This document shows, in pieces, positions 1-36,026 of a stretch of 64,000 nt of DNA; positions within the stretch are counted from its first letter, which is position 1, and each line of letters begins with the position of its first letter. Position numbers and translations under genes: made by a program. Origin of the DNA: an uncultured Victivallales bacterium. Its GTDB lineage: Bacteria; Verrucomicrobiota; Lentisphaeria; Victivallales; UBA1829. Under the pieces are notes generated by a model. That model was not told the origin of the DNA. It was given only the letters and a program-made list of their open reading frames with translations, and made no database searches. The DNA lies in assembly GCA_944391115.1 (NCBI GenBank), contig CALXSJ010000004.1:101957-165956 (forward strand). Reading direction: 5' to 3'.

Positions 1-2428
1 GTTTATTCGAAATGCCGGGCTGCCCGACGCGCTTGCTGCCGCGCAGCACCTGCTCGTCATGCGGATTGTTTCCGCCGAGATCCAGAAGCAGATCCGTTGT
101 GAAAGTCAGATTCGCAAACGGAGTGAAACGGAACATCGTCCCCAGATCTCCGACGTGATTGAACCCGGAAGTCCGGTCGAAATGGAAGTCCCAGTAGTTT
201 TCGAGAGACATCCATTCATAAATCTGGGAGTCTCGGCGGGTCTGCAAACGGTTCTGCAATCCGAAACGGATGAAGTTCTGACGCTCGATCTGATCGACAT
301 CGTCAAAATAATACAGTTTCTTGTAGCTGACAGTCGGATCGGGAATCAGCGTGTAGTTGATGTAAGGCACCGCCACATGCCGCAGTCCGTCAATTTCCCA
401 GAAGGCGTTTTTCGGAGTCTGCCACGCGCGGTAGAACTTCGTGTTGGCTTCCAGCCCGAATTCCGCGGCGAAACGGTAACGGGCGCCGCCTTTGCGATCG
501 TAATTCTGAACCTTGAGATACTGATCCGGCCAGGAATCCAGATCGTCGGCGTAAATCATGGTATAAAGATCCTCGACATCAACGGAGCGTTTCGAAGACC
601 GGGAATACGCGGTGAACCGCCCGCCGGCGCGGGGAATCAGGTTGATCGCGTCAAACAGCTTGATCGGATAATAGAACATGTGCAGGGTGTCAAACCGGAA
701 GGCGCTGTAATCGCGCGGGTCTTCAAAATATCCGGAGAACGCGCCGGGGTTCAGGGCGGCGAGCCGGGCGGCCTTCTCGCGATCCGAGAGCGGCCCGGCA
801 AGAATCGCGCTCGCCTGCGCCTGTTCCGCCGGGGAAAGATTCGCCCGTTCCCTGCTGTAGATCCCATACAGATTCAGGTTCGGATTCTCCGCCCGGTCAT
901 AATCATAGCTCCGCCAGTTCATCCGGTAATAGCCGACGCTGGACTGCCCCTGGTAGTAAATGTTTTTGAACAGCTCCTGACGCTGGAAATCAAGACGGAA
1001 TTCCGGAAGGCGCTCCATGGTGCTGTCAAAGGAGTTCACTTTGACAACAGTCTGGAACGTTGCAGAAAAACGCTCGCCCTGATATTCCAGGGCGGCGAAA
1101 GTCGGCGGCTGGATATTGGAATCATACCGGGCCTTGAAATAATCCTCCAGGAAATTGTAGTCGCTGATCAGATCGAACTGTCCGCGGAAATCCAAACGCG
1201 GCGTCAGATGGGTCAGATTTGAGATTTTGAATTCAAAGCGGTCCCGCGGGATGCGATAGCGGCTGTTCTTCTTCACCCATTGCGGCATGCTCATGTCATC
1301 GGGGGCGTCACCGTGTTCGCTCTCCCAGAATTCGTAGGGACTGCGGTCATGGATGGAGTAGGCAAAAATCTCGGTCAGGGATTCCGGCGTCTGAATGTCG
1401 GCAGTTGCACCGTATCCGAAACCGCGTTCCTCATAAAAGTCCAGGAGCACGGCGGCTTTGACAAGCGCCGGTTCATCCAGAAGCTGAAACTCCTTGCTGG
1501 TCCGCAGATAATAGCCCCAGTCGGAGGAACTTCCGAATTCAAAACGGCCGCCGAAGGAGTTGGAATCCGCCGGCTTGTAGAATGCGGGGAACCAGAATAC
1601 CGGAAAATCCCACACCCTCACAATATTGTTGAAGGACCACGCGGAATGTTCCCCATGGTCGGGATTGTAATTGGTCACGCCGCGGTTCGCCTCGCGCGGA
1701 GACAGCGTCAAGGTGGAAGCGCCGATCGAATAATGGGCATTGTTGTCAAGCTCATATTCGCAGGTTGTCATCTTCGCGTCATGCAGTTTGATCTTGCCGT
1801 TCGGAAAACGCTCCGCAAATTTTCCGGAGCAGTACAGGAGCCCGGTCTTGATCATGAAATCACGGAACTCCAGAGCCCCTGTGTCCAGATTTCCGGATGC
1901 GCGGGCGGCCTTCATATAAGCAGCCGTCGTATAGACGGTGGCCTTGATCTTCTGCTGTCCGGTGGGCAGCGTTTCCACACCGTTGACAACCACCCGGCAG
2001 GCGGGATCCCGGAGCAGGTCGTCATACTCCTCCTGTGTCAATGTCACAGGTGAAGATGCCGTGCCGGAAAAAACGACATTGCCGGAAACTTCAAGATCTT
2101 TTGTCTCCAGATTGACCACCGCCTTGTCGCAGGTGATCTGAAAGTTGCCGGAACGGATGACGACATGCCCTTCCGCAATCAAATTCGCACCGACATACTT
2201 GTAGGAATCCGCGCTGGTATCCAGCTTCTCCCGGGAAAGATCGCCGACCTTGGGAAACGGAGTCGCCTTGAACTGAAGAGCATTTTTATCAAACAGACCG
2301 GTCTTTACGGAGGAATTGGACCCCTGCTGATATCCGTCCGCGTAGATGCGCCCGCAGACCATCAGGATGAATGCTCCCGTTATGACAACATGCGTCCGCT
2401 TGTTTTTTTTCTGCTTTCTTTTTCGCAC
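1..2428 (-). CDS. lptD: LptD/OstA-like outer-membrane LPS-assembly protein; C-terminus runs off the window start
   Basis: Absent from the ORF track because it has no stop inside the window. Hand translation of the minus strand from GTG at 2428 gives (M)RKRKQKKNKRTHVVITGAFILMVCGRIYA, which looks like a signal peptide. It continues with an OstA-like N-domain (GNFQITCDKAVVNLETKDLEVSGNVVF) and a long aromatic/Gly-rich barrel-type region (RQNFIRFGLQNRLQTRRDSQIYEWMSLENYWDFHF), open to position 1. Plus-strand ORFs 59..1222 and 1280..2053 are its antisense shadows. Confidence 0.65.
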   Translation of the reverse strand, partial: MRKRKQKKNKRTHVVITGAFILMVCGRIYADGYQQGSNSSVKTGLFDKNALQFKATPFPKVGDLSREKLDTSADSYKYVGANLIAEGHVVIRSGNFQITCDKAVVNLETKDLEVSGNVVFSGTASSPVTLTQEEYDDLLRDPACRVVVNGVETLPTGQQKIKATVYTTAAYMKAARASGNLDTGALEFRDFMIKTGLLYCSGKFAERFPNGKIKLHDAKMTTCEYELDNNAHYSIGASTLTLSPREANRGVTNYNPDHGEHSAWSFNNIVRVWDFPVFWFPAFYKPADSNSFGGRFEFGSSSDWGYYLRTSKEFQLLDEPALVKAAVLLDFYEERGFGYGATADIQTPESLTEIFAYSIHDRSPYEFWESEHGDAPDDMSMPQWVKKNSRYRIPRDRFEFKISNLTHLTPRLDFRGQFDLISDYNFLEDYFKARYDSNIQPPTFAALEYQGERFSATFQTVVKVNSFDSTMERLPEFRLDFQRQELFKNIYYQGQSSVGYYRMNWRSYDYDRAENPNLNLYGIYSRERANLSPAEQAQASAILAGPLSDREKAARLAALNPGAFSGYFEDPRDYSAFRFDTLHMFYYPIKLFDAINLIPRAGGRFTAYSRSSKRSVDVEDLYTMIYADDLDSWPDQYLKVQNYDRKGGARYRFAAEFGLEANTKFYRAWQTPKNAFWEIDGLRHVAVPYINYTLIPDPTVSYKKLYYFDDVDQIERQNFIRFGLQNRLQTRRDSQIYEWMSLENYWDFHFDRTSGFNHVGDLGTMFRFTPFANLTFTTDLLLDLGGNNPHDEQVLRGSKRVGQPGISNK

Positions 2429-19473: not shown

Positions 19474-19651
19474 ATCATGCGCCGAACCGGAATTTTTGCC
19501 GGATTCCGGGTTGCAATCACACACGCGGCATGCTACGTTACCGCTCCCGGCGGAAGTACGGAACAGCAGCCAATTGGAAACGGCATGCGGCCCGGCACGG
19601 ACGGGAAGGATTCCCCCCGTTCTCTCCGGACTTCGGAACATGAGGGTTATG

Positions 19652-21376
19652 ATGAAACCGGACATCTCCAGAGCCACGCAGAGAAATTGGAACCGGTTGC
19701 GGATCGACGGAAGAAAACGCCTGACGAAACGGGCGAACAAGCGCCGGTCCACAAAACGGATCCTGCCGCTGGAATATGTTTCCGATCCCGCTCACATTCC
19801 GTTTGTCCGGGCGGCGGCCGACCGGGTGCGCCGGAAGAAAATCCCGCTGTTCCGGGCGATCCGTTTCTTTGCAGCCGCGCTGCTGAAAGAAAAAGGAATT
19901 CTGCAGAAACCGCATGTGCAGGCAGTATTGGGGGAATCTCCTTCCGAACCGGATGATTTTCCCGCCGGTCTCGCCATTCCGGAACATGAATGGGACATTC
20001 TCGGGCTTCTCTATCAGAGCATGCTGCCGGAAGGACGCAAAAACAGAAACGGCTCCTATTACACACCGGAATCCGTCGCGAAAAACATGACAAAGGATTT
20101 CGATTTCTCCCATGGAGAAACTTTTCTGGACCCCTGCTGCGGCAGCGGCTCGTTCCTGCTCGCCCTGCCCTGTCATGATCCGGAACGCATCTTCGGATTC
20201 GACAATGATCCCCTCGCCGTCTTCATTGCGAAGGTGAATCTTCTTCTCAGATTCGCCGACCGGGAGTTCACGCCGCAGATCTTCCGCATGAATTATCTCG
20301 GAAAAAACCGCGGAAACGCCCTGCTGCGCGGCATCCGGCGGAAAACCTTTGACTACATCGCAACCAATCCTCCCTGGGGAGCGGTCTCCAGAGGCGCGCG
20401 CATTCCGGGGGAAATCCGTTCCGGAGAGTCGTTTTCCCGCTTTTTCGTGAACGCCCGGCGTCAGCTGAACGACAATGGAATGATCCGGTTTCTTTTTCCG
20501 GAATCGCTCCTCAATGTAAAAAACCACAGGGAGCTGCGTTCCTTTCTGCTGAACCGGTGCGAACTGAAGCAGATCACACTGTACGGCGGGACGTTTTCCG
20601 GCGTGACGACAAGATATATCGACGTGCTGTGCGGAAAACATCCGCCGACCCGGGAGGTGTATTTCCGCGATCCGTCCGGACTTCACAGGATTCCGGCGGA
20701 CAGCTTCCGCATGACGGACAATTTTTCCTTTCTCACCCACGCGGATCTGGAAATTCTCCGGAAAATCAAGGCGAAAGGCAGATATGATCTTTCCGGCAGC
20801 ATCTGGGCCCTCGGAATCGTGACGGGCGACAACCGGAACAAGCTGAAGCGCGTGCCGGAACCGGGATTCGAGCCGATCTACACGGGAAAGGAGATCGAAC
20901 GCTACCGGCTCCGGCCGCCGGAAAACTATCTTCTTTACGACCGGACAAACCTGCAGCAGATCGCCAGGGAGGAGTATTACCGGGCGCAGGAAAAACTGGT
21001 TTACAAATTCATTTCATCCAAACTGGTTTTCGCCTATGACGATACGGGAAGCCTTTTCCTGAACAGCGCAAACATCCTGATTCCCTCCGTTCCGGGCATG
21101 AGCATCAAAACCGTTCTCGCGTTTTTGAACTCGGCGCTCTTCCAGTTTTATTACAGCAGGATTTTCGGCGAGGTGAAAATCCTGAAGGGGAATCTCGTCA
21201 AACTCCCGTTCCCCGGCATTCTTCCGGAACAGAACCGGCTTTTCGAATCCGCCGCAGACAGAATTCTTGCAGGAGATGACACCGCGGACGAATTTCTGCA
21301 GGAGGCAATCGAAGCGCTCTATGATCTCACGCCCGATCAGACGGCATATGTCCGGAAAATCGCAGGCAGACAGTGA
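19652..21376 (+). CDS. N6-adenine DNA methyltransferase (Eco57I/TaqI-like, gamma class) with C-terminal target-recognition domain
   Basis: AdoMet motif I FLDPCCGSGSFLL and catalytic motif IV DYIATNPPWG. TaqI-like C-terminal TRD (LVYKFISSKLVFAYDDTGSLFLNSANILIP). Start is uncertain (ATGs at 19640, 19649, 19652 after GAGGG; the ORF is open from 19496). Confidence 0.85.
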   Translation: MKPDISRATQRNWNRLRIDGRKRLTKRANKRRSTKRILPLEYVSDPAHIPFVRAAADRVRRKKIPLFRAIRFFAAALLKEKGILQKPHVQAVLGESPSEPDDFPAGLAIPEHEWDILGLLYQSMLPEGRKNRNGSYYTPESVAKNMTKDFDFSHGETFLDPCCGSGSFLLALPCHDPERIFGFDNDPLAVFIAKVNLLLRFADREFTPQIFRMNYLGKNRGNALLRGIRRKTFDYIATNPPWGAVSRGARIPGEIRSGESFSRFFVNARRQLNDNGMIRFLFPESLLNVKNHRELRSFLLNRCELKQITLYGGTFSGVTTRYIDVLCGKHPPTREVYFRDPSGLHRIPADSFRMTDNFSFLTHADLEILRKIKAKGRYDLSGSIWALGIVTGDNRNKLKRVPEPGFEPIYTGKEIERYRLRPPENYLLYDRTNLQQIAREEYYRAQEKLVYKFISSKLVFAYDDTGSLFLNSANILIPSVPGMSIKTVLAFLNSALFQFYYSRIFGEVKILKGNLVKLPFPGILPEQNRLFESAADRILAGDDTADEFLQEAIEALYDLTPDQTAYVRKIAGRQ

Positions 21377-22763: not shown

Positions 22764-22782
22764 AGGTAAGGTGTACGCCGAA

Positions 22783-23967
22783 ATGAACGATCTGAAGGTC
22801 ACAAAAGGAACCATGGCGTTCCTCTCCCCGTCCGAAACACTTGCAATCGCGGCGAAGGCCAAGGCGCTGAAAGCCGCCGGCGAAAACGTCTGCGCAATGG
22901 GAGCCGGCGAACCCGATTTCGATACGCCGGCGCACATCAAACAGGCGGCGATTGACGCTCTTCTGAAAGGGGAGACGAAATACACGCCCTCCTCCGGCAT
23001 CCCCGCACTCAAGAAGGCGATTGCGGAAAAATTCCGGAATGACAACGGAATCGAGACGGAACCTTCCCGGATCATCGTTTCGCCCGGCGCGAAATTCAGC
23101 GGTTTTGCAGCGATCTGCACCCTCTGCGGTCCCGGCGACGAGGTCATTGTCCCCGCCCCCTACTGGGTCAGCTACACGGAAATGATCAAGGCCGCCGGCG
23201 CAACTGCGGTCATCGTCCGCTGCAAGGCGGAGAACAATTTCGAACTGGAGCCGGAAGCCCTTCAGGCCGCGATCACGCCGCGCACGAAACTGCTGATTCT
23301 CAATTCGCCGTCGAATCCGACCGGCGCGGTCTACCGGACTTCCACGATTGAGAAAATCGCGGAAGTGGCACTGCGGAACAACATCATGGTTCTTTCGGAC
23401 GAGATTTATGAGAAGCTCGTCTATGACCCGGAGCTTCCGCACAAAAGCATTGCCTCGGTCTCCCCGGAGATGAATGAGCTCACGATCACGGTCAACGGGT
23501 TCAGCAAGGCCTATTCGATGCCAGGCTGGCGGCTCGGTTACCTCACGGCGCCGAAATGGCTGGCGGACCGGATCGTCGCATTCCAGAGTCACACGACCTC
23601 CAATCCGACGAGTTTTGCCCAGTACGGAGCGCTCGCCGCGCTGACCGGCCCCCAGGAACCTGTCGAGGAAATGCGCCGCGCGTTTGCAAAACGCCGGGAC
23701 CTCATCTACTCGCTCCTTTCCGCAATTCCGGGCGTCAGGACAATCCGGCCTTCCGGCGCGTTCTATCTTTTCTTCGACGTGTCAAGCTTCGGTCTGAACT
23801 CCACGGACTTCGTCAACCGTCTGCTGGACGAGGAAAAAGTCGCGGGTGTGCCGGGGAAGGCATTTGGAGACGATCACAGTCTCCGTGTTTCCTACGCATG
23901 CTCCGAGGAGACCATCCGCGAAGCCGCCGCCAGAATCGCCCGTTTCTGCGGAAAACTTGCAAAATAA
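22783..23967 (+). CDS. Class I PLP-dependent aminotransferase (aspartate aminotransferase-like)
   Basis: Motifs SPSETLAIAAKAKALKAAGENVCAMGAGEPDFDTP and NSPSNPTG, plus the PLP lysine context FSKAYSMPGWRLGY. ATG at 22783 follows AAGGTG. Confidence 0.9.
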   Translation: MNDLKVTKGTMAFLSPSETLAIAAKAKALKAAGENVCAMGAGEPDFDTPAHIKQAAIDALLKGETKYTPSSGIPALKKAIAEKFRNDNGIETEPSRIIVSPGAKFSGFAAICTLCGPGDEVIVPAPYWVSYTEMIKAAGATAVIVRCKAENNFELEPEALQAAITPRTKLLILNSPSNPTGAVYRTSTIEKIAEVALRNNIMVLSDEIYEKLVYDPELPHKSIASVSPEMNELTITVNGFSKAYSMPGWRLGYLTAPKWLADRIVAFQSHTTSNPTSFAQYGALAALTGPQEPVEEMRRAFAKRRDLIYSLLSAIPGVRTIRPSGAFYLFFDVSSFGLNSTDFVNRLLDEEKVAGVPGKAFGDDHSLRVSYACSEETIREAAARIARFCGKLAK

Positions 23968-24391: not shown

Positions 24392-25936
24392 ATGGATCAG
24401 CTGAAAACCGAAATCGCCGTTCTGCAGGAAATCAGTTCCGCCGTAGTCCACGAGCGGAACGTCAGCCGTCTTCTTGACAGGGTGCTCGACATTCTGAACC
24501 GGAAAATGGGCATGGTGCGCGGCACGTTCACGCTCCGGCAGGGAGACCTGTTCATCATTGAAGCCTCGCAGGGGCTTGATGAAAACGAGAAGAAACGCGG
24601 ACGCTACAAGCTCGGCGAGGGAATCACAGGACATGTCGCAGAAACAGGCGTCCCCTGTCTGGTGCCGGACATCTCGAAAGACAAGCGTTTTCTGAGCCGT
24701 ACGGGAAAACACCAGTTCGACAGCAATCCCGTCGCATTTCTCTGCGTTCCGGTCATCCAGGACGAACGCGTGATCGCCACGCTCGGCATTGACCGCAAGG
24801 TGGTTCCCGGCGTGCAGCTGGACGAGGATCTGAAACTCCTGGAAATCATCGGCAATCTGATGGCTGACGCGGTCGCGGTTTACCATCAGGAGCGGGAGGA
24901 ACGGGAGAGTCTGCTGGAAGAAAACAAACGCCTGCGCGAAGCGCTCACGGAAGGCGGGAATCCCGGAGAACTGATCGGCAACTGCCGGGCGATGCAGAAT
25001 ATTTATGCGCTGATCCGCCAGGTCGCCGCCAGCAATGCCACCGTGCTGATCCGGGGAAGCTCCGGAACCGGCAAGGAACTGGTCGCAAAAGCGATCCGTC
25101 AGCTCAGCACGCGCGCGGACAAACCGTTTGTCACGCTGAATTGCGCCGCACTGCCGGAAAATCTGGTCGAAAGCGAACTCTTCGGTCATGAAAAAGGAGC
25201 GTTCACCGGCGCGGTCAGCCGCAGAATCGGGCGCGCCGAGGCGGCGGACGGCGGCACGCTGTTTCTGGACGAGATCGGCGATCTGAGCCTGCCTGTCCAG
25301 GTCAAGCTCCTGCGTTTCATTCAGGAACGCACCTTCTCGCGGATCGGAAGCAACGAGGAGATCCGGACCGACGTCCGGCTTCTGGCCGCGACCAGCCGGA
25401 ATCTGGAACAGCTGATGGCGGAGGGGAAATTCCGCGAAGACCTCTATTACCGCCTGAACATCTTCCCGATCCTCCTGCCGGACCTCTCCAAGCGCAGAAG
25501 CGACATCGTTCTGCTGGCGGAACATTTCATCGCCAAGCACAACCTGCGTTACGGCAAACATGTCAAGCGCCTTTCCACCCCGGCGGTCAACATGCTGATG
25601 GCGTATCACTGGCCGGGAAATGTCAGAGAGCTGGAAAACTGCATCGAACGTGCCGTTCTGACCGCCTCGGATGACTGCATTCACGGTTACAATCTGCCGC
25701 CCTCGCTGCAGACCGGAAAAGAGGCCGGCTATGAACTGCTCCCCGAAGGAAAGGCATCCTTCAACACGATGGTCGAATCCTTTGAGCGGGAGCTGATTGT
25801 CGAGGCGCTGAAGAAAAACCGCGGCAACATGTCCGCCGCCGCGCGCGATCTCGATCTCTCCCCGCGTGTCATCCACTACAAGATCAACAGCTACGGCATC
25901 ACACCCGAATGGTACCGCCGCAAACAGGATGAGTGA
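24392..25936 (+). CDS. Sigma-54-dependent transcriptional activator (GAF + AAA+ + Fis-type HTH; NifA-like architecture)
   Basis: GAF-like N-domain. AAA+ core with Walker A GSSGTGKE, the GAFTGA loop (EKGAFTGA) and Walker B LFLDEIG. C-terminal [23 protein letters not shown]. Confidence 0.9.
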
Positions 25937-26030
25937 CATCCTTGCGGTCACGGCTGGACGCGTGCCGCCTCGGCATGACATTCGCACGGATGTTTATTTT
26001 TCGGAACGTTTATAAACATTAAAACTTTTT

Positions 26031-26057
26031 ATATTTGAAATATTATATTTTAAATAT
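26031..26057. promoter_or_regulatory. Two adjacent copies of the palindrome ATATTT-N-AAATAT
   Basis: ATATTTgAAATAT at 26031-26043 and ATATTTtAAATAT at 26045-26057, 14 bp centre to centre. A further perfect 10-bp palindrome, GTTTATAAAC, lies at 26008-26017. Confidence 0.4.
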
Positions 26058-26110
26058 GTAATCAATCAAAGTATTTTTGAGATATTCCATTCATAACAAA
26101 TATATTTTCC

Positions 26111-26140
26111 TTGATTTTCCGAGTTTGTCCAATATATTAT
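26111..26140 (+). promoter_or_regulatory. Sigma-70-like promoter candidate for the ECF sigma/kinase pair
   Basis: TTGATT (26111-26116), an 18-nt spacer, then TATTAT (26135-26140), inside the AT-rich island. Confidence 0.35.
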
Positions 26141-26183
26141 AAAATCATTAAAAATCGTTTCTTTTCCGTGGAGATTCAGCAAC

Positions 26184-26738
26184 GTGAGTTTTACAACACA
26201 TCCCAGTGTCGTCCGGAATCTAAAGGACGGGAGAAGCGAGGCGTGGAACCGCTTTTTTGAACTCTACGCGCCGCTGATCCGCCTGCATGGCAAAGACTGC
26301 GGCATTGACGACGATTCGCTGGACGATCTTGTCCAGAATGTGATGATGTCGGTCTTCCACAGCAGCGCACGCTTTGAATACGATCCGGCGAAAGGCCGTT
26401 TCCGGGATTATCTCCGCTTCATCATCCGGGCACGCGCCAACGACATGCTGCGCGCCAGATACCGCAGGGTGAATCCGCAGGAAATTCCCGCCGTCGAAGA
26501 ATGTCTGGATGAACTCTACTCCGCGGAATGGGAGGAACACGTCCGGACCGAAAGCCTGAAAAAACTCAAGGCGGACATTCTTGCGCGGCATTATCAGATT
26601 TTTCATATGCTTGACGTGCAGAACCGGAAAGTCAGGGATGTCGCGCGCTTCTTTCAGATGTCGGAAGCGTCCATCTATTCCATCCGGAACCGGACAGAGC
26701 TGAAACTGCGCCGGATCGCGGAACAAATGGACGTCTGA
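26184..26738 (+). CDS. ECF-type sigma-70 family sigma factor
   Basis: GTG start with GGAG 10 nt upstream. Region 2 (DDSLDDLVQNVMMSVF, FRDYLRFIIRARANDMLR) and region 4 HTH (RKVRDVARFFQMSEASIYSIRNRTELKLRR). Confidence 0.85.
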   Translation: MSFTTHPSVVRNLKDGRSEAWNRFFELYAPLIRLHGKDCGIDDDSLDDLVQNVMMSVFHSSARFEYDPAKGRFRDYLRFIIRARANDMLRARYRRVNPQEIPAVEECLDELYSAEWEEHVRTESLKKLKADILARHYQIFHMLDVQNRKVRDVARFFQMSEASIYSIRNRTELKLRRIAEQMDV

Positions 26739-26739
26739 C

Positions 26740-27567
26740 ATGCCGGACACCAGACCGAAAATCCCGAATTTCACTCTTGTGGAAGAGTGCGGGCGCGGCT
26801 CCATCGGCAGTGTCTGGCTCGCCGTCGATCCCGACGGAATCCTCCGCGCCATCCGCCTTGTGAATCTCTCCGATCCCGCAAACCGGGAAAGAATCGAAGC
26901 CGAGGCCCGCGCAATCACGCTCTACCGCAATGCGGCCGATCACCATCCGAATCTGCTCGACATTCTCTACGTCGGACGCACAGCCAGACATCTGTATTAT
27001 GTCACAGAACCCGCCGACAACGCGGCGCCATCCTCATGCACATACCGAGCGGACACCCTTGCGGACCGCCTGGAGAGACGCCCGTATTCCGCAGAGGAAA
27101 CACGCGGATATATCGAAGCTCTTCTCAATGGCGTCGAACACCTGCATAAAAATCGTCTGGCGCACCGAGATCTGAAACCGGAAAACATTCTTTTCATCCG
27201 CAATGAACTGAAAATCGCCGATCCGGGCCTTTCCGGCTCCATTGCGAAAATTTCCGAATCCGGAACCGAGGAATTCCGCCCGCCGGGGCGCACAAGCGGC
27301 GAACAGGCGGATTTTTATGCAATCGGCAAAATCATTTACTGCCTCTACACCCGCAGAAATGCGGACCGCTTCCCGGAAATCCCCGAGGAAATCGAGATCC
27401 GCTCCATCGCCGCCTGGAACGAAATCGCGCTGAAATGCTGCGGAGACGGCGCGTCGTCCTACCGCAGCATCGCGGACATCCGGGCGGACGTCCGGAAAGC
27501 CGGCAGTTCATGCCGCTGGAGAGAAATTCTGCGCCGCACCGGGCAATACGCGTTCCACGGACTTTGA
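26740..27567 (+). CDS. Stand-alone Hanks-type Ser/Thr kinase-like protein (atypical ATP-site residues)
   Basis: Gly-loop GRGSIGSV, catalytic loop HRDLKPENILF and subdomain IX DFYAIGKIIY are present. The VAIK position reads LRAIR and DFG reads DPG. Starts 1 nt after the sigma factor stop. No TM segment or extra domain. Confidence 0.85.
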   Translation: MPDTRPKIPNFTLVEECGRGSIGSVWLAVDPDGILRAIRLVNLSDPANRERIEAEARAITLYRNAADHHPNLLDILYVGRTARHLYYVTEPADNAAPSSCTYRADTLADRLERRPYSAEETRGYIEALLNGVEHLHKNRLAHRDLKPENILFIRNELKIADPGLSGSIAKISESGTEEFRPPGRTSGEQADFYAIGKIIYCLYTRRNADRFPEIPEEIEIRSIAAWNEIALKCCGDGASSYRSIADIRADVRKAGSSCRWREILRRTGQYAFHGL

Positions 27568-30025: not shown

Positions 30026-30637
30026 TCAGAGGGATTTCGCCAGCGCGACGGCTTTCCGGATGCCGTCCGCGTCCGCCTTGTTCAGCCAGGTTCCGCCCGC
30101 CGCGGCAACCTCCGGAACGGCAAGCCAGTCCCCGGCGTTGTCAATCGTGACGCCGCCGGTCGGCATGAACTTGATTCCGAGATGCTTGTAGGGGGCGGCA
30201 ATGGACTTGAGCATCTTGATTCCGCCCGCCGCCTCGGCCGGGAAGAACTTGAAGAAACGGCAGCCGAGCTCATAGGCCTGCTCGATCTCCGAAGGTGTGC
30301 AGATGCCGGGGGCGAACGCATAGCCGCATTTCAGCGCCTCCCTGACAACCGTCGGATTGAAGCCCGGCGCGACGGCGAATTTCGCGCCCGCGTCGAAGGC
30401 ACGGTGAAGATCCGCGGTATTGAGCACGGTTCCCGCGCCGAGGAACATCTCCGGGAAGCGTCTGGAGGCTTCCCGGATGACCGACTCCGCCGCTTTGGTG
30501 CGGAACGTGATTTCCGCGACGGGAAGACCGCATTCGCAGAGAAGTTCACAGCGTTTCAGTCCGCTTTCAAGATCTTCGAGAACCAGAACGGGGATGATTT
30601 TGTATTGCGCGAGAGTCTCGCCGATGGATGCCGTCAT
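30026..30637 (-). CDS. eda: KDPG / 4-hydroxy-2-oxoglutarate aldolase
   Basis: Start moved to ATG 30637 (MTASIGE), which has a GGAGGAG RBS. Motifs PVAEITFRT, GAGTVLN, and the Schiff-base Lys context FKFFPAEAAGG. Confidence 0.85.
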   Translation of the reverse strand: MTASIGETLAQYKIIPVLVLEDLESGLKRCELLCECGLPVAEITFRTKAAESVIREASRRFPEMFLGAGTVLNTADLHRAFDAGAKFAVAPGFNPTVVREALKCGYAFAPGICTPSEIEQAYELGCRFFKFFPAEAAGGIKMLKSIAAPYKHLGIKFMPTGGVTIDNAGDWLAVPEVAAAGGTWLNKADADGIRKAVALAKSL

Positions 30638-30789
30638 TTTCGCTCCTCCAGAATGTAATGTATTGTTGCAGTCTTCCAAAACACGACGGGGGAATATACC
30701 ATGATCTTTCCTGTTTTGCAAGTTGAAACGGTGCGCCTCCGCTCCGGGAAGCGCGGAAACACGCGCAATGCCGAAATGGCGCGGAAATA

Positions 30790-30806
30790 TGTGACATTTT
30801 GTCACG
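30790..30806. promoter_or_regulatory. Perfect inverted repeat GTGAC-ATTTT-GTCAC (possible activator/UAS site)
   Basis: tGTGACATTTTGTCACg is centred about 117 bp upstream of the candidate -24 element, within the eda/dnaK divergent region. Confidence 0.3.
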
Positions 30807-30914
30807 GTGAGACATAAAAAAGGCGCCCTCCCTCCCCTTTTCCCCACCCGGAGACCGCATCGAATATTCTGTTTTAACCTTATTATCATAATGTTGCAAA
30901 AAGATAAAAAAGAT

Positions 30915-30930
30915 TGGCATCAGGTTTGCT
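30915..30930 (+). promoter_or_regulatory. Candidate sigma-54 (-24/-12) promoter upstream of dnaK
   Basis: TGGCATcaggtTTGCT matches the TGGCAC-N5-TTGCW consensus with exact GG-to-GC spacing. The -12 GC lies 54 nt upstream of the dnaK ATG. Confidence 0.55.
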
Positions 30931-30982
30931 TAAAGGGAAAGCGTCAACAAAGAAAATAAAACACAAAGGAAAGGATGTCACT

Positions 30983-32896
<1,914 letters not shown>

Positions 32897-32917
32897 GCAA
32901 TAAGGTTCGAACCGTTT

Positions 32918-32955
32918 CCCCGGAGTCCCGACACTCCGGGGAAATGATTTTATTC
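32918..32955 (+). terminator. Hairpin after dnaK (terminator or attenuator)
   Basis: CCCCGGAGT / ACTCCGGGG stem with a 6-nt loop, followed by aaatgaTTTTATT. The T-tract is not immediately adjacent to the stem. Confidence 0.55.
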
Positions 32956-33008
32956 AGACAGGAAACCCTGTAAAAAACACATATTCCAAAAAAGGAGAAG
33001 ATCCAGCA

Positions 33009-33308
33009 ATGAGCAAGATCAGCATTCAGCCCCTCGGAGACAGAGTTCTCGTTGAGCAGAAACAGGAAGCCGAACAGATCAAAGGCGGAATCGTGATTCC
33101 GGATTCGGCCAAGGAGAAACCCCTGGAAGCCGTGGTGGTCGCGCTCGGAACGGGAAAACTCGACGACAAGGGCAACAAGATCCCCTTCGACGTGAAAGTC
33201 GGCGACGTCGTCCTCACCAGCAAATACGGCGGCACCGAAATCAAGTATGACGACAAGGAATACAAGATTCTCAGCGCCGGCGACATTCTCGCCGTCATCA
33301 GCAAGTAA
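33009..33308 (+). CDS. groES: Co-chaperonin GroES
   Basis: 99 aa. [12 protein letters not shown] and [13 protein letters not shown] are present. Confidence 0.95.
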
Positions 33309-33338
33309 GTTCTGAAAATCCAGAAAAAATACAAATAA

Positions 33339-35000
<1,662 letters not shown>

Positions 35001-35050
35001 TTCATGCGGCATTCCCGCGCGGGCGGTTCTCCCGCCCGCATTGCCCGATA

Positions 35051-35089
35051 AAAACGGCGCAGGTCAAAACGATCTGCGCCGTTTTTTTA
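35051..35089 (+). terminator. Rho-independent terminator after groEL
   Basis: AAAACGGCGCAG / CTGCGCCGTTTT stem followed by a run of T. Confidence 0.8.
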
Positions 35090-35252
35090 TTTCCTTCTCC
35101 CGAAAGACGGCCGTTTCCGCAGAAAAAAAGGAAATCCGGCGGAAACGGGAACGGCGCATCAAAAAAATCGGAATTATTTTCTTTCAATAATTTGCAAAAT
35201 CACGCAAAAGGTGTCATATTTTATCAAACACAAAAAATGAAACGGAAAAACG

Positions 35253-36026
35253 ATGGTTCCGGAACGAAAGAGAAAACTGCTCTCCGCCGAACGTGAGACA
35301 CTGATCTGCAGAAGTCTCTCCCAGGGAGTCAAGACGATCTCCGAGCTCAGCGATGAGCTCCGGGTGTCGGAAGCGACCGTCCGGCGCGATCTGGAGACGC
35401 TGGAAGCCGGCGGCAAGCTGCGCCGGGTGCACGGCGGAGCGGAGCTCCTGCACGGACATCAGGAACCGGTCTACGAGGAAAAGGCGTCGCGGAATGCCGC
35501 GGAAAAAGCCTATATTGCGGAGAAAGCCGTTTCATTCATCAAGGATTCGGACACGATTTTCCTGGACGGCGGAAGCACCGTTCTGGAACTGGCGAAAAAA
35601 CTTGACCGTTTCCGCGACCTCACCGTGGTGACGAATTCGCTGATGGCGGCGTCGGCGCTGATGGAGCGCAGCTGCCGCCTGATTCTGGTCGGCGGGGAGT
35701 TCCGGAGCCTCAGCCGGACCCTGGTCGGACCGCTGACCGCCAAGATCCTCGACGGCATGAACATCTCCAAGGCGTTTCTCGGCACAATCGCCTTCAATCC
35801 CGAAAAAGGAATCAGCACGACCGATCCGAACGAGGCATACACCAAGGAGCTGGTCATGAAGCGGGCGGATCATGTTTATGTTCTGGCGGACAGCTCGAAA
35901 CTGACGCTTTCATCCTTCGTTTTCAGCGGAGCCATCCGGGACATCGACACGCTGATCTCCGATCCCGGCATCCCGCAGAACGTCATCAAGAAACTGAAAA
36001 CCCAAAATATAGAAGTGATATTCTAA
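35253..36026 (+). CDS. DeoR/GlpR-family transcriptional regulator
   Basis: N-terminal HTH (ISELSDELRVSEATVRRDLETLEAGGKLRRVHGGA) and a DeoR C-terminal sugar-phosphate sensor-like domain. Confidence 0.85.
   Translation: MVPERKRKLLSAERETLICRSLSQGVKTISELSDELRVSEATVRRDLETLEAGGKLRRVHGGAELLHGHQEPVYEEKASRNAAEKAYIAEKAVSFIKDSDTIFLDGGSTVLELAKKLDRFRDLTVVTNSLMAASALMERSCRLILVGGEFRSLSRTLVGPLTAKILDGMNISKAFLGTIAFNPEKGISTTDPNEAYTKELVMKRADHVYVLADSSKLTLSSFVFSGAIRDIDTLISDPGIPQNVIKKLKTQNIEVIF

Follow-up and report, generated by a model that had tools for sequence, protein, structure and literature searches.

The intergenic region between eda and dnaK in an uncultured Victivallales bacterium of the gut (Lentisphaerota) very probably contains a sigma-54 promoter that depends on an activator. 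It would serve dnaK and, where polymerase reads through an internal hairpin, groES-groEL as well, and it would belong to a wider chaperone regulon. The region was studied within a 64,000-nucleotide stretch (64 kb) of contig CALXSJ010000004.1, referred to below as the window. Sequence analysis and comparison with relatives together show the promoter element, a dyad upstream of it, the conservation of both and their association with chaperone genes.

Predicted promoter and upstream dyad of dnaK

The eda-dnaK intergenic region is 345 bp long, with eda (2-keto-3-deoxy-6-phosphogluconate aldolase) divergent on the - strand (start 30637). The putative promoter (Table 1) carries its GG and GC doublets exactly 10 nt apart, the canonical spacing within YTGGCACG-N4-TTGCW, and departs from TGGCAC only by a C to T change, which is a common variant. 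It lies in non-coding DNA in the right orientation, and its end is 52 nt from the dnaK ATG. A first-pass annotation, made from the sequence alone, had recognised this -24/-12 match with its exact GG/GC spacing, which our analysis bears out; its placement close to dnaK also holds, although its distance of ~54 nt is slightly too long. The palindrome that it described further upstream is real, but has 6-nt arms (GTGACA-N3-TGTCAC) rather than the 5-nt arms given there.

By itself, one match in 64 kb carries no significance. The pattern TGGCAY-N5-TTGCW occurs once on the two strands of the window against 0.14 expected, at least one match appeared in 12 of 100 shuffles (12%), and 1.6 chance matches are expected in the window when one mismatch to the TGGCAC consensus is allowed. 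These numbers leave some room for the view that motif and palindrome are chance matches in AT-rich intergenic DNA, and that dnaK is served by an unrecognised housekeeping promoter only. In a weighted scan that required GG and GC, the dnaK site was the top scorer of the window, with no other convincing intergenic site. We consider the promoter more than a chance match because it is conserved in relatives: its conserved positions persist within diverged flanks, the dyad co-occurs with it, and the pair predicts chaperone genes both in metagenomes and at independently chosen clpB loci (see below). The comparison effectively refutes the chance explanation, to which we give next to no probability.

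The loci of relatives (numbered with L) were collected as orthologous dnaK regions. The Lentisphaerota set comprises L001-L010, with DnaK identities of 68-99%; L001, from a Victivallales metagenome-assembled genome (MAG) of the same species, is the same locus (DnaK identity 99%), and its promoter differs from that of the window in spacer positions only. TGGCAY-N6-TGCT was found 49-105 nt before the dnaK ATG in all ten Lentisphaerota loci, within flanking DNA that could not be aligned. With a relaxed score, YGGCAY-N5-TTGCW and similar upstream repeats were also found in seven of nine Verrucomicrobiota dnaK loci. The relaxed promoter pattern was essentially absent from Acidobacteriota, Chloroflexota and other phyla, examined as 55 non-PVC dnaK loci (that is, loci from outside the Planctomycetota-Verrucomicrobiota-Chlamydiota group, PVC). 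The first-pass annotation had staked its promoter on conservation upstream of orthologous dnaK genes, and the motif is indeed conserved there. Confinement of the element to Lentisphaerota, suggested by the strict pattern TGGCAY-N6-TGCW (0/67 outside Lentisphaerota, L013 and L015), was rejected as overstated in view of the Verrucomicrobiota found by the relaxed score.

The dyad is likewise rare in the window. Its core, with a 3-nt spacer between the arms, gave one match when one mismatch was allowed, against 0.09 expected. The dyad centre is ~143 nt before the predicted transcription start, and the dyad ends 108 nt before the -24 element; dyads of relatives end 38-54 or 96-116 nt before theirs. 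Upstream copies of the 17-bp consensus TGTGNCA-N3-TGNCACA, one to four in number, occur in all ten Lentisphaerota dnaK loci, and the layout of the window, in which a g separates the dyad from the half-site TGAGACA, recurs in L001-L003. In L001-L010, matches with at most three mismatches to TGTGACA-N3-TGTCACA are nearly confined to the DNA upstream of dnaK. Nine of the ten Lentisphaerota dnaK loci have the full dyad, versus none of the 55 non-PVC loci. The site thus has the traits expected of an enhancer for an NtrC-family activator, which are dyad symmetry, a place ~50-150 bp upstream of the -24 element and frequent repetition. Taken together, the comparisons support reading the motif at 30915-30930 as a true sigma-54 promoter and the palindrome as the site at which its activator acts from upstream.

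Alternatively, the palindrome could be no dnaK enhancer but an operator through which a conventional repressor or activator controls the divergent eda gene, given its position 154 nt upstream of where eda translation starts and a sigma-70-like promoter predicted on the - strand at 30721-30693. However, eda adjoins dnaK only in this species, the dyad stays upstream of dnaK in L002-L010, and it is also found upstream of clpB, hsp20 and groES elsewhere; we regard an eda operator as very improbable.

For the sigma-54 promoter, we propose the following mechanism. RNA polymerase with sigma-54 would bind the -24/-12 element (30915-30930) and be held there as a closed complex. An AAA+ enhancer-binding protein would assemble on the 17-bp dyad and the extra half-site (30790-30814), ~110 bp upstream, loop across the AT-rich spacer to the polymerase and open the promoter with ATP. 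Transcription would start near 30941, ~12 nt downstream of the -12 C, and would reach groES-groEL by reading through the internal hairpin. A sigma-54 chaperone regulon would then take the place of sigma-32 or HrcA-CIRCE control. The AT-rich spacer contains a match to the integration host factor site, TATCATaatgTTG (30884-30896), with one mismatch to the literature consensus WATCAANNNNTTR, a weak match read by eye. A ribosome-binding site, AAAGGAAAGGA, is located at about 30966-30976.

No other heat-shock element was recognised. CIRCE (TTAGCACTC-N9-GAGTGCTAA) was not found anywhere in the window with up to three mismatches, and the best CIRCE-like match upstream of dnaK had at least seven mismatches in every Lentisphaerota locus. 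No sigma-32-type promoter (CTTGAAA-N13-17-CCCCATNT) was found at the chaperone genes, and the sole TTGAA-N14-18-CCCAT match in the window (1629-1656) is unrelated. Both absences had been noted in the first-pass annotation, and our scans agree with it. Rfam models gave no match in 30500-35400 except sub-threshold ones at the groEL terminator. The dnaK leader folds no better than shuffled sequences (free energy -4.6 kcal/mol, z +0.87); an RNA thermometer (ROSE, FourU and similar) is unlikely at dnaK because the leader is unstructured and has no Rfam match.

The gene order dnaK-groES-groEL is kept in L001-L012, L014 and L016 and is common to Lentisphaerota and Verrucomicrobiota. The dnaK-groES spacers of relatives measure 95-170 nt in most loci and 395 nt in L003. 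The hairpin is present in this spacer in nearly all Lentisphaerota loci, and no promoter-like motif for a separate groES promoter was found in any spacer of the relatives. Since the spacers hold a hairpin but no promoter motif, the simplest reading is that groESL would be co-transcribed with dnaK, with partial termination at the hairpin, which probably acts as a partial terminator or a transcript-stabilising element within the operon.

It should be noted that the sigma-54 promoter may not act alone. Under dual control, it would provide a stress boost, and a second promoter, situated for instance upstream of dnaK or within the dnaK-groES spacer, would account for basal dnaK and groESL expression, an arrangement that would complement the proposed mechanism. 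Without an activated enhancer-binding protein, a sigma-54 promoter normally gives no transcription, the strong hairpin after dnaK means that groESL might need its own initiation, and our sigma-70 scan used a simple Escherichia-type consensus that may miss a promoter. However, that scan found no sigma-70-like site on the + strand in 30500-35400, the dnaK-groES spacers lack a conserved promoter-like motif as described above, and the mapped chaperone starts with a sigma-54 motif in Flavobacterium psychrophilum include those of groESL and dnaK (PMC9723704). A second promoter is possible, though we lean against it.

Table 1 Predicted features of the dnaK-groES-groEL locus and of the activator gene upstream of it (window coordinates)
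Feature	Position	Strand	Details
GAF-AAA+-HTH_8 sigma-54 activator gene	24392..25936	+	Pfam domains; GAFTGA motif intact
Upstream activator site (predicted), 17-bp dyad TGTGACAtttTGTCACG	30790..30806	+	Perfect core GTGACA-TTT-TGTCAC, 30791-30805
Third half-site TGAGACA	30808..30814	+	One base after the dyad; putative function
AT-rich spacer directly upstream of the -24 element	30860..30914	+	GC content down to 0.41 around 30800-30999
Sigma-54 promoter (predicted) TGGCATcaggtTTGCT (= TGGCATCAGGTTTGCT), TGGCAT-caggt-TTGCT	30915..30930	+	-24 GG at 30916-17; -12 GC at 30928-29
Predicted 5' untranslated region, ~42 nt	30941..30982	+	Start at ~30941 predicted from standard sigma-54 geometry
dnaK	30983..32896	+	637 aa; ATG at 30983; Pfam HSP70, 897 bits
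Hairpin between dnaK and groES	32913..32946	+	GC-rich, strong, weak T-tract; free energy -38.8 kcal/mol, z -5.6
groES	33009..33308	+	Pfam Cpn10
groEL	33354..35000	+	Pfam Cpn60_TCP1
Intrinsic terminator at the operon end	35050..35086	+	16-bp stem, then a T-run

Several further dnaK loci deserve mention. In another Lentisphaeria MAG (L009:11130-11185), the terminator hairpin directly after the groEL stop codon has as its loop a heat-shock dyad in near-perfect form, TGTGACACTATGTCGCA, so that the operon in that genome is bracketed by activator sites. At L013:917-2416, a 250-aa AAA+ protein akin to sigma-54 activators, without a GAFTGA loop or DNA-binding domain, is encoded just upstream of a dnaK gene with a good sigma-54 promoter (TGGCATACCAATTGCA). 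A PspF-like activator is encoded near dnaK at L015, where dnaK also has a sigma-54 promoter. The putative promoters in L032:4193-7001 and L035:5403-7001 (TGGCACACTAATTGTT, TGGCATGATTATTGAT) have TTGT or TTGA for the canonical TTGC at -12. The -12 element may have a variant form particular to the lineage, or the sites may not be sigma-54 promoters at all.

Elsewhere in the window, a sharply AT-rich stretch of ~190 bp (25990-26180) separates the GAF activator gene from a gene for an extracytoplasmic function (ECF) sigma factor (26184-26738). The latter is followed by a Ser/Thr protein kinase gene (26740-27567), a pairing common in PVC bacteria. At 19496-21376, the window encodes an N6-adenine methyltransferase with a TaqI-like specificity domain (an Eco57I-type restriction-modification enzyme), with glycoside hydrolase genes on both flanks.

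A probable chaperone regulon in related genomes

Metagenomes were scanned with a pattern consisting of the dyad, 56-116 nt and TTGGCAY-N6-TGCT, which returned 120 DNA stretches and 104 loci with a callable downstream gene. The downstream gene encoded a chaperone in 44 of these 104 loci (24 DnaK, 15 Hsp20, 4 ClpB and 1 GroES), and examples were confirmed by NCBIfam. The DnaK matches were closest to Lentisphaerota or Verrucomicrobiota references, and one ClpB match came from Kiritimatiellae.

Because the metagenome scan selected on a DNA pattern, a set of six clpB loci was chosen independently, by protein similarity and name. The set comprised three Lentisphaerae MAGs, Pontiella desulfatans, one Kiritimatiellae MAG and one PVC MAG. 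In each of the six, a sigma-54-type promoter precedes the clpB ATG by 39-76 nt. Clear dyads were found before clpB in L210 and L212, before hsp20 in L209 and L213, and before groES in L205, which has a separate groES-groEL pair with TTGGCACGATTTTTGCG and cTGACAtttTGTCAg. The clpB gene of Pontiella desulfatans is preceded by TGCGACAgttTGTCGCG-g-TGTGCCG, which is the layout of the window, namely a palindrome, one base and a third half-site. Since the scan for dyad plus promoter returns chaperone genes and the independent clpB genes carry sigma-54-type promoters, the comparison indicates a lineage-wide sigma-54 chaperone regulon (dnaK-groESL, clpB, hsp20 and separate groESL) in Lentisphaerota, Kiritimatiellota and many Verrucomicrobiota.

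Some clpB loci showed deviations from the consensus. The -24 element of the clpB promoters reads TGGTAY in L209 and L213 (L213:4800-4850, L209:3810-3830), and TGAGTCA-N3-TGACTCA-like or TGACTC repeats take the place of TGTGNCA dyads in L213:4800-4850, L209:3810-3830 and L214:4810-4850. The clpB gene may therefore have a variant activator site.

Genes for RpoS-like sigma factors (L101, L104, L105, L122 and L197) were considered as regulon members and rejected, as L197 was assigned to Sphaerochaeta by protein search and the arrangement is read as a Borrelia-type RpoN-RpoS cascade. In L197:2736-9408 (Sphaerochaeta, Spirochaetota), a gene for an RpoS-like group-2 sigma factor stands behind a sigma-54 promoter with the dyad TGTGTCAAAGTGACAC, and a kinase and an Rrp2-like regulator are encoded 3 kb upstream of it. 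The arrangement resembles the Borrelia RpoN-RpoS cascade, here in free-living relatives, and the same module was found in L122, L101, L104 and L105. In L090, L092 and L162, genes for TupA/WtpA-like substrate-binding proteins of ATP-binding cassette transporters follow sigma-54 promoters that are accompanied by the dyad TGCGTCAAATTGAC(G/A)C. An activator is encoded in L092 and L162 as well, and in L092 it is divergent and directly adjacent. These TupA/WtpA-like loci are a different regulon caught by the degenerate pattern.

Candidate activators

The first-pass annotation had proposed the GAF-domain activator encoded upstream of dnaK in the window as the regulator. The promoter and dyad would then be real, and the GAF domain would sense a stress-related ligand. 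This protein is the only activator of the window, the 64 kb hold no good sigma-54 site besides the dnaK promoter, and the gene lies 5 kb upstream of dnaK both here and in L001. The protein is also unusually well conserved, with orthologues 70-79% identical across Victivallaceae, and the L205 orthologue (70% identity) is encoded 3 kb from the separate groES-groEL pair described above, which has a sigma-54-type promoter.

However, the genomic context of the orthologues points elsewhere. In four distinct genomes (V. lenta-type, V. vadensis, L206 and L208), the orthologue is the last gene of a gltB-gltD(-dapF-aminotransferase) operon, which in three of the four adjoins a divergent type III glutamine synthetase gene (glnA). 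The gltB or glnA-gltB promoters carry one or two TTTAC-N6-GTAAA palindromes (16 bp, with 5-nt arms and a 6-nt gap) and no heat-shock dyad nearby. The window retains the linkage between the aminotransferase gene (22771-23967) and the activator gene (24392), and TTTAC-N6-GTAAA is absent from it. No autoregulatory dyad or promoter was found near the GAF activator gene, and in the other Lentisphaerota loci (L002-L010) dnaK has no activator gene at a distance of 7 kb or less. Seven contexts were examined in all, and apart from the window, the orthologue was near a chaperone gene in one of six. The annotated role as chaperone regulator is thus not supported, and the GAF protein is probably a nitrogen-assimilation regulator. 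We consider its action on dnaK unlikely, and keep a minor share of our confidence on it because of the L205 orthologue 3 kb from groESL.

The best NCBIfam model for the GAF protein was the NifA model TIGR01817, with 470.5 bits, below the cutoff of 528.85. It was not classed as NifA; its neighbours are gltBD, dapF and an aminotransferase gene, not nif genes, and the associated site is TTTAC-N6-GTAAA rather than TGT-N10-ACA. Sigma-54 promoters were seen before gltB in L201:1726-1985, L203:1719-1984, L206:1916-2190 and L208:4079-4225, and three of these loci also have one before the divergent glnA. The Victivallis-type gltBD/glnA arrangement with its GAF orthologue looks like a GAF-sensor (NifA-like) nitrogen-assimilation circuit.

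Other genomes offer a second class of candidate. In L209 (a Lentisphaerae MAG) and L213 (a PVC MAG), an orthologous histidine kinase and a REC-AAA-HTH_8 regulator are encoded between or beside hsp20 and clpB, and both of these genes have a sigma-54 promoter of their own. Identity between the two kinases is 49% over 409 aa. In L032, and in L035 from Omnitrophota, a kinase-regulator pair is directly followed by a dyad, a TGGCAY-N5-TTG(T/A)T element and dnaK. Our best guess for the chaperone activator is therefore a two-component system of the kind that adjoins hsp20/clpB or dnaK in these genomes, made up of a histidine kinase and an NtrC-type response regulator. The activators encoded in the metagenome loci were rejected as chaperone regulators, as most belong to other regulons (TupA-like transporters, twin-arginine translocation (TAT)-signal proteins and a porin); none resembles the GAF protein of the window beyond the AAA+ core.

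More speculatively, Lentisphaerota, Kiritimatiellota and many Verrucomicrobiota might have replaced sigma-32 and HrcA by one sigma-54 regulon, run by an L209/L213-type kinase-regulator pair that binds TGTGNCA-N3-TGNCACA. We put this forward tentatively and would not call it probable. If true, the kinase, with its uncharacterised N-terminal domain, would be a sensor of temperature or protein-folding stress.

Two lines of evidence for the sigma-54 regulon drawn here come with reservations, and further points weigh against it. Half-sites are frequent upstream of dnaK (per 195 nt, an average of 6.0 for Lentisphaerota, 4.1 for Verrucomicrobiota and 0.85 for the 55 non-PVC loci; 60 observed in total in Lentisphaerota against 17.1 ± 3.8 in shuffles), but the half-site pattern was derived from the same sequences as part of these statistics, which makes the enrichment partly circular. 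Similarly, the information profile of 23 aligned PVC chaperone promoters, with ~2 bits at GG, CA and TGC and values near 0 elsewhere (high only at TGGCAY and TGC), is the footprint expected for sigma-54, but for Verrucomicrobiota and clpB the profile is partly circular because GG and GC were preconditions of the relaxed scoring. Further matches to the degenerate dyad occur at Sphaerochaeta rpoS-like genes, TupA-like transporters and fliA; the dyad defines a class of site, not one regulator, because the pattern takes in sites of unrelated activators. The L209 regulator is 42-44% identical to the L032/L035 proteins, which is only marginally above its identity to unrelated activators (~41%). We infer induction by heat or protein-folding stress from the identity of the genes alone. 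An RpoN box was found in none of the 209 loci scanned, nor in the window. Finally, dnaK and groEL are normally essential, and sigma-54 promoters are silent without their activator; the activator must then be active at a basal level, or a second promoter has gone unrecognised.

The intact GAFTGA activator of the window is indirect evidence that sigma-54-dependent transcription operates in the organism. In a Kiritimatiellae MAG, an rpoN gene with the full set of three Sigma54 Pfam domains (L214:11015-12448) follows clpB at a distance of 3.4 kb, beyond mfd.

Comparison with known systems and implications

The predicted site recalls the NtrC enhancer at enteric glnAp2, where a 17-bp 7-3-7 dyad (TGCACCA-N3-TGGTGCA), present in multiple copies ~100-140 bp upstream, is bound by an activator with a Fis-type HTH_8 domain that acts by DNA looping. 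The 7-3-7 geometry upstream of a sigma-54 promoter is shared (here TGTGNCA-N3-TGNCACA). However, the half-site sequence differs and the targets are chaperone genes, not nitrogen genes; Victivallis glnA and gltB use TTTAC-N6-GTAAA instead.

Sigma-54 control of stress genes has precedents. In Myxococcus xanthus, the two-component system HsfB/HsfA is responsible for sigma-54-dependent heat-shock activation of lonD. In E. coli, ibpB and pspA have sigma-54 promoters, the PspF-type activator being a precedent for stress genes. The kinase-regulator pairs of L209 and L213 (by hsp20/clpB) and of L032 and L035 (by dnaK) resemble HsfB/HsfA by layout only. In these two organisms, sigma-54 controls accessory genes alongside sigma-32 or HrcA, whereas in the window the core dnaK-groESL operon itself has the predicted sigma-54 promoter, with no other heat-shock element found.

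Closer parallels come from two studies. Start-site mapping in Flavobacterium psychrophilum placed sigma-54 promoters (motif SM4) at groESL, dnaK, grpE-dnaJ, htpG, clpB and lon (PMC9723704), and a SM4 sigma-54 chaperone regulon is described for F. psychrophilum and Bacteroides (PMC9723704; cited in PMC12316311). As in our case, -24/-12 promoters stand directly before chaperone and quality-control genes, and the activator is unnamed in the relevant passages of that work too (PMC9723704). The differences are that F. psychrophilum belongs to another phylum (Bacteroidota), that starts are mapped there and predicted here, and that dnaK and groESL appear to form one unit here. An upstream dyad, present at the Victivallales locus, is not described in the passages of PMC9723704 that deal with these promoters. 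A 2025 weight-matrix survey reported that chaperone genes are enriched for predicted sigma-54 promoters in Planctomycetota and Bacteroidota (PMC12316311). It draws the same kind of inference as ours (for DnaK, DnaJ, GrpE, GroEL/ES, IbpA and ClpB-type proteases), and Planctomycetota belong to the same PVC superphylum. By term search, its text has no Lentisphaerota and mentions Verrucomicrobiota for motility only, and the parts on chaperones define no upstream site or activator.

A literature search on sigma-54 together with Lentisphaerae, Victivallis or Verrucomicrobia returned nothing relevant. Our analysis adds the extension to Lentisphaerota, Kiritimatiellota and Verrucomicrobiota, the shared 17-bp dyad and a candidate class of activator. 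The first-pass annotation had called sigma-54 control of chaperones an unusual regulatory design, which is apt when set against textbook models but does not stand as a claim of novelty, given the precedents (PMC9723704, PMC12316311). Within the same superphylum, Chlamydia uses HrcA-CIRCE to repress dnaK and groE, with the inverted repeat overlapping a sigma-66 promoter (PMC8762339, PMC4652624). The target operons are the same, but the logic is the opposite one of a repressor, and CIRCE is absent from the window.

In textbook accounts, heat-shock genes are controlled by a dedicated sigma factor (sigma-32) or by a repressor (HrcA, HspR or CtsR). ATP-dependent, enhancer-activated sigma-54 transcription would be a third logic, for which mapped promoters have so far come from Bacteroidota alone and predictions from Planctomycetota. 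In practice, little follows beyond a possible use of promoter and dyad in Victivallis as a module for stress-inducible expression. The regulon signature can be used in annotating poorly studied gut and environmental bacteria, and it points to the kinase-regulator pair as a candidate stress sensor. Because the same logic and a shared dyad are found in Lentisphaerota, Kiritimatiellota and Verrucomicrobiota, our results suggest an ancestral origin or a wide distribution of sigma-54 control of chaperones within the PVC group; Chlamydia, for its part, relies on HrcA.

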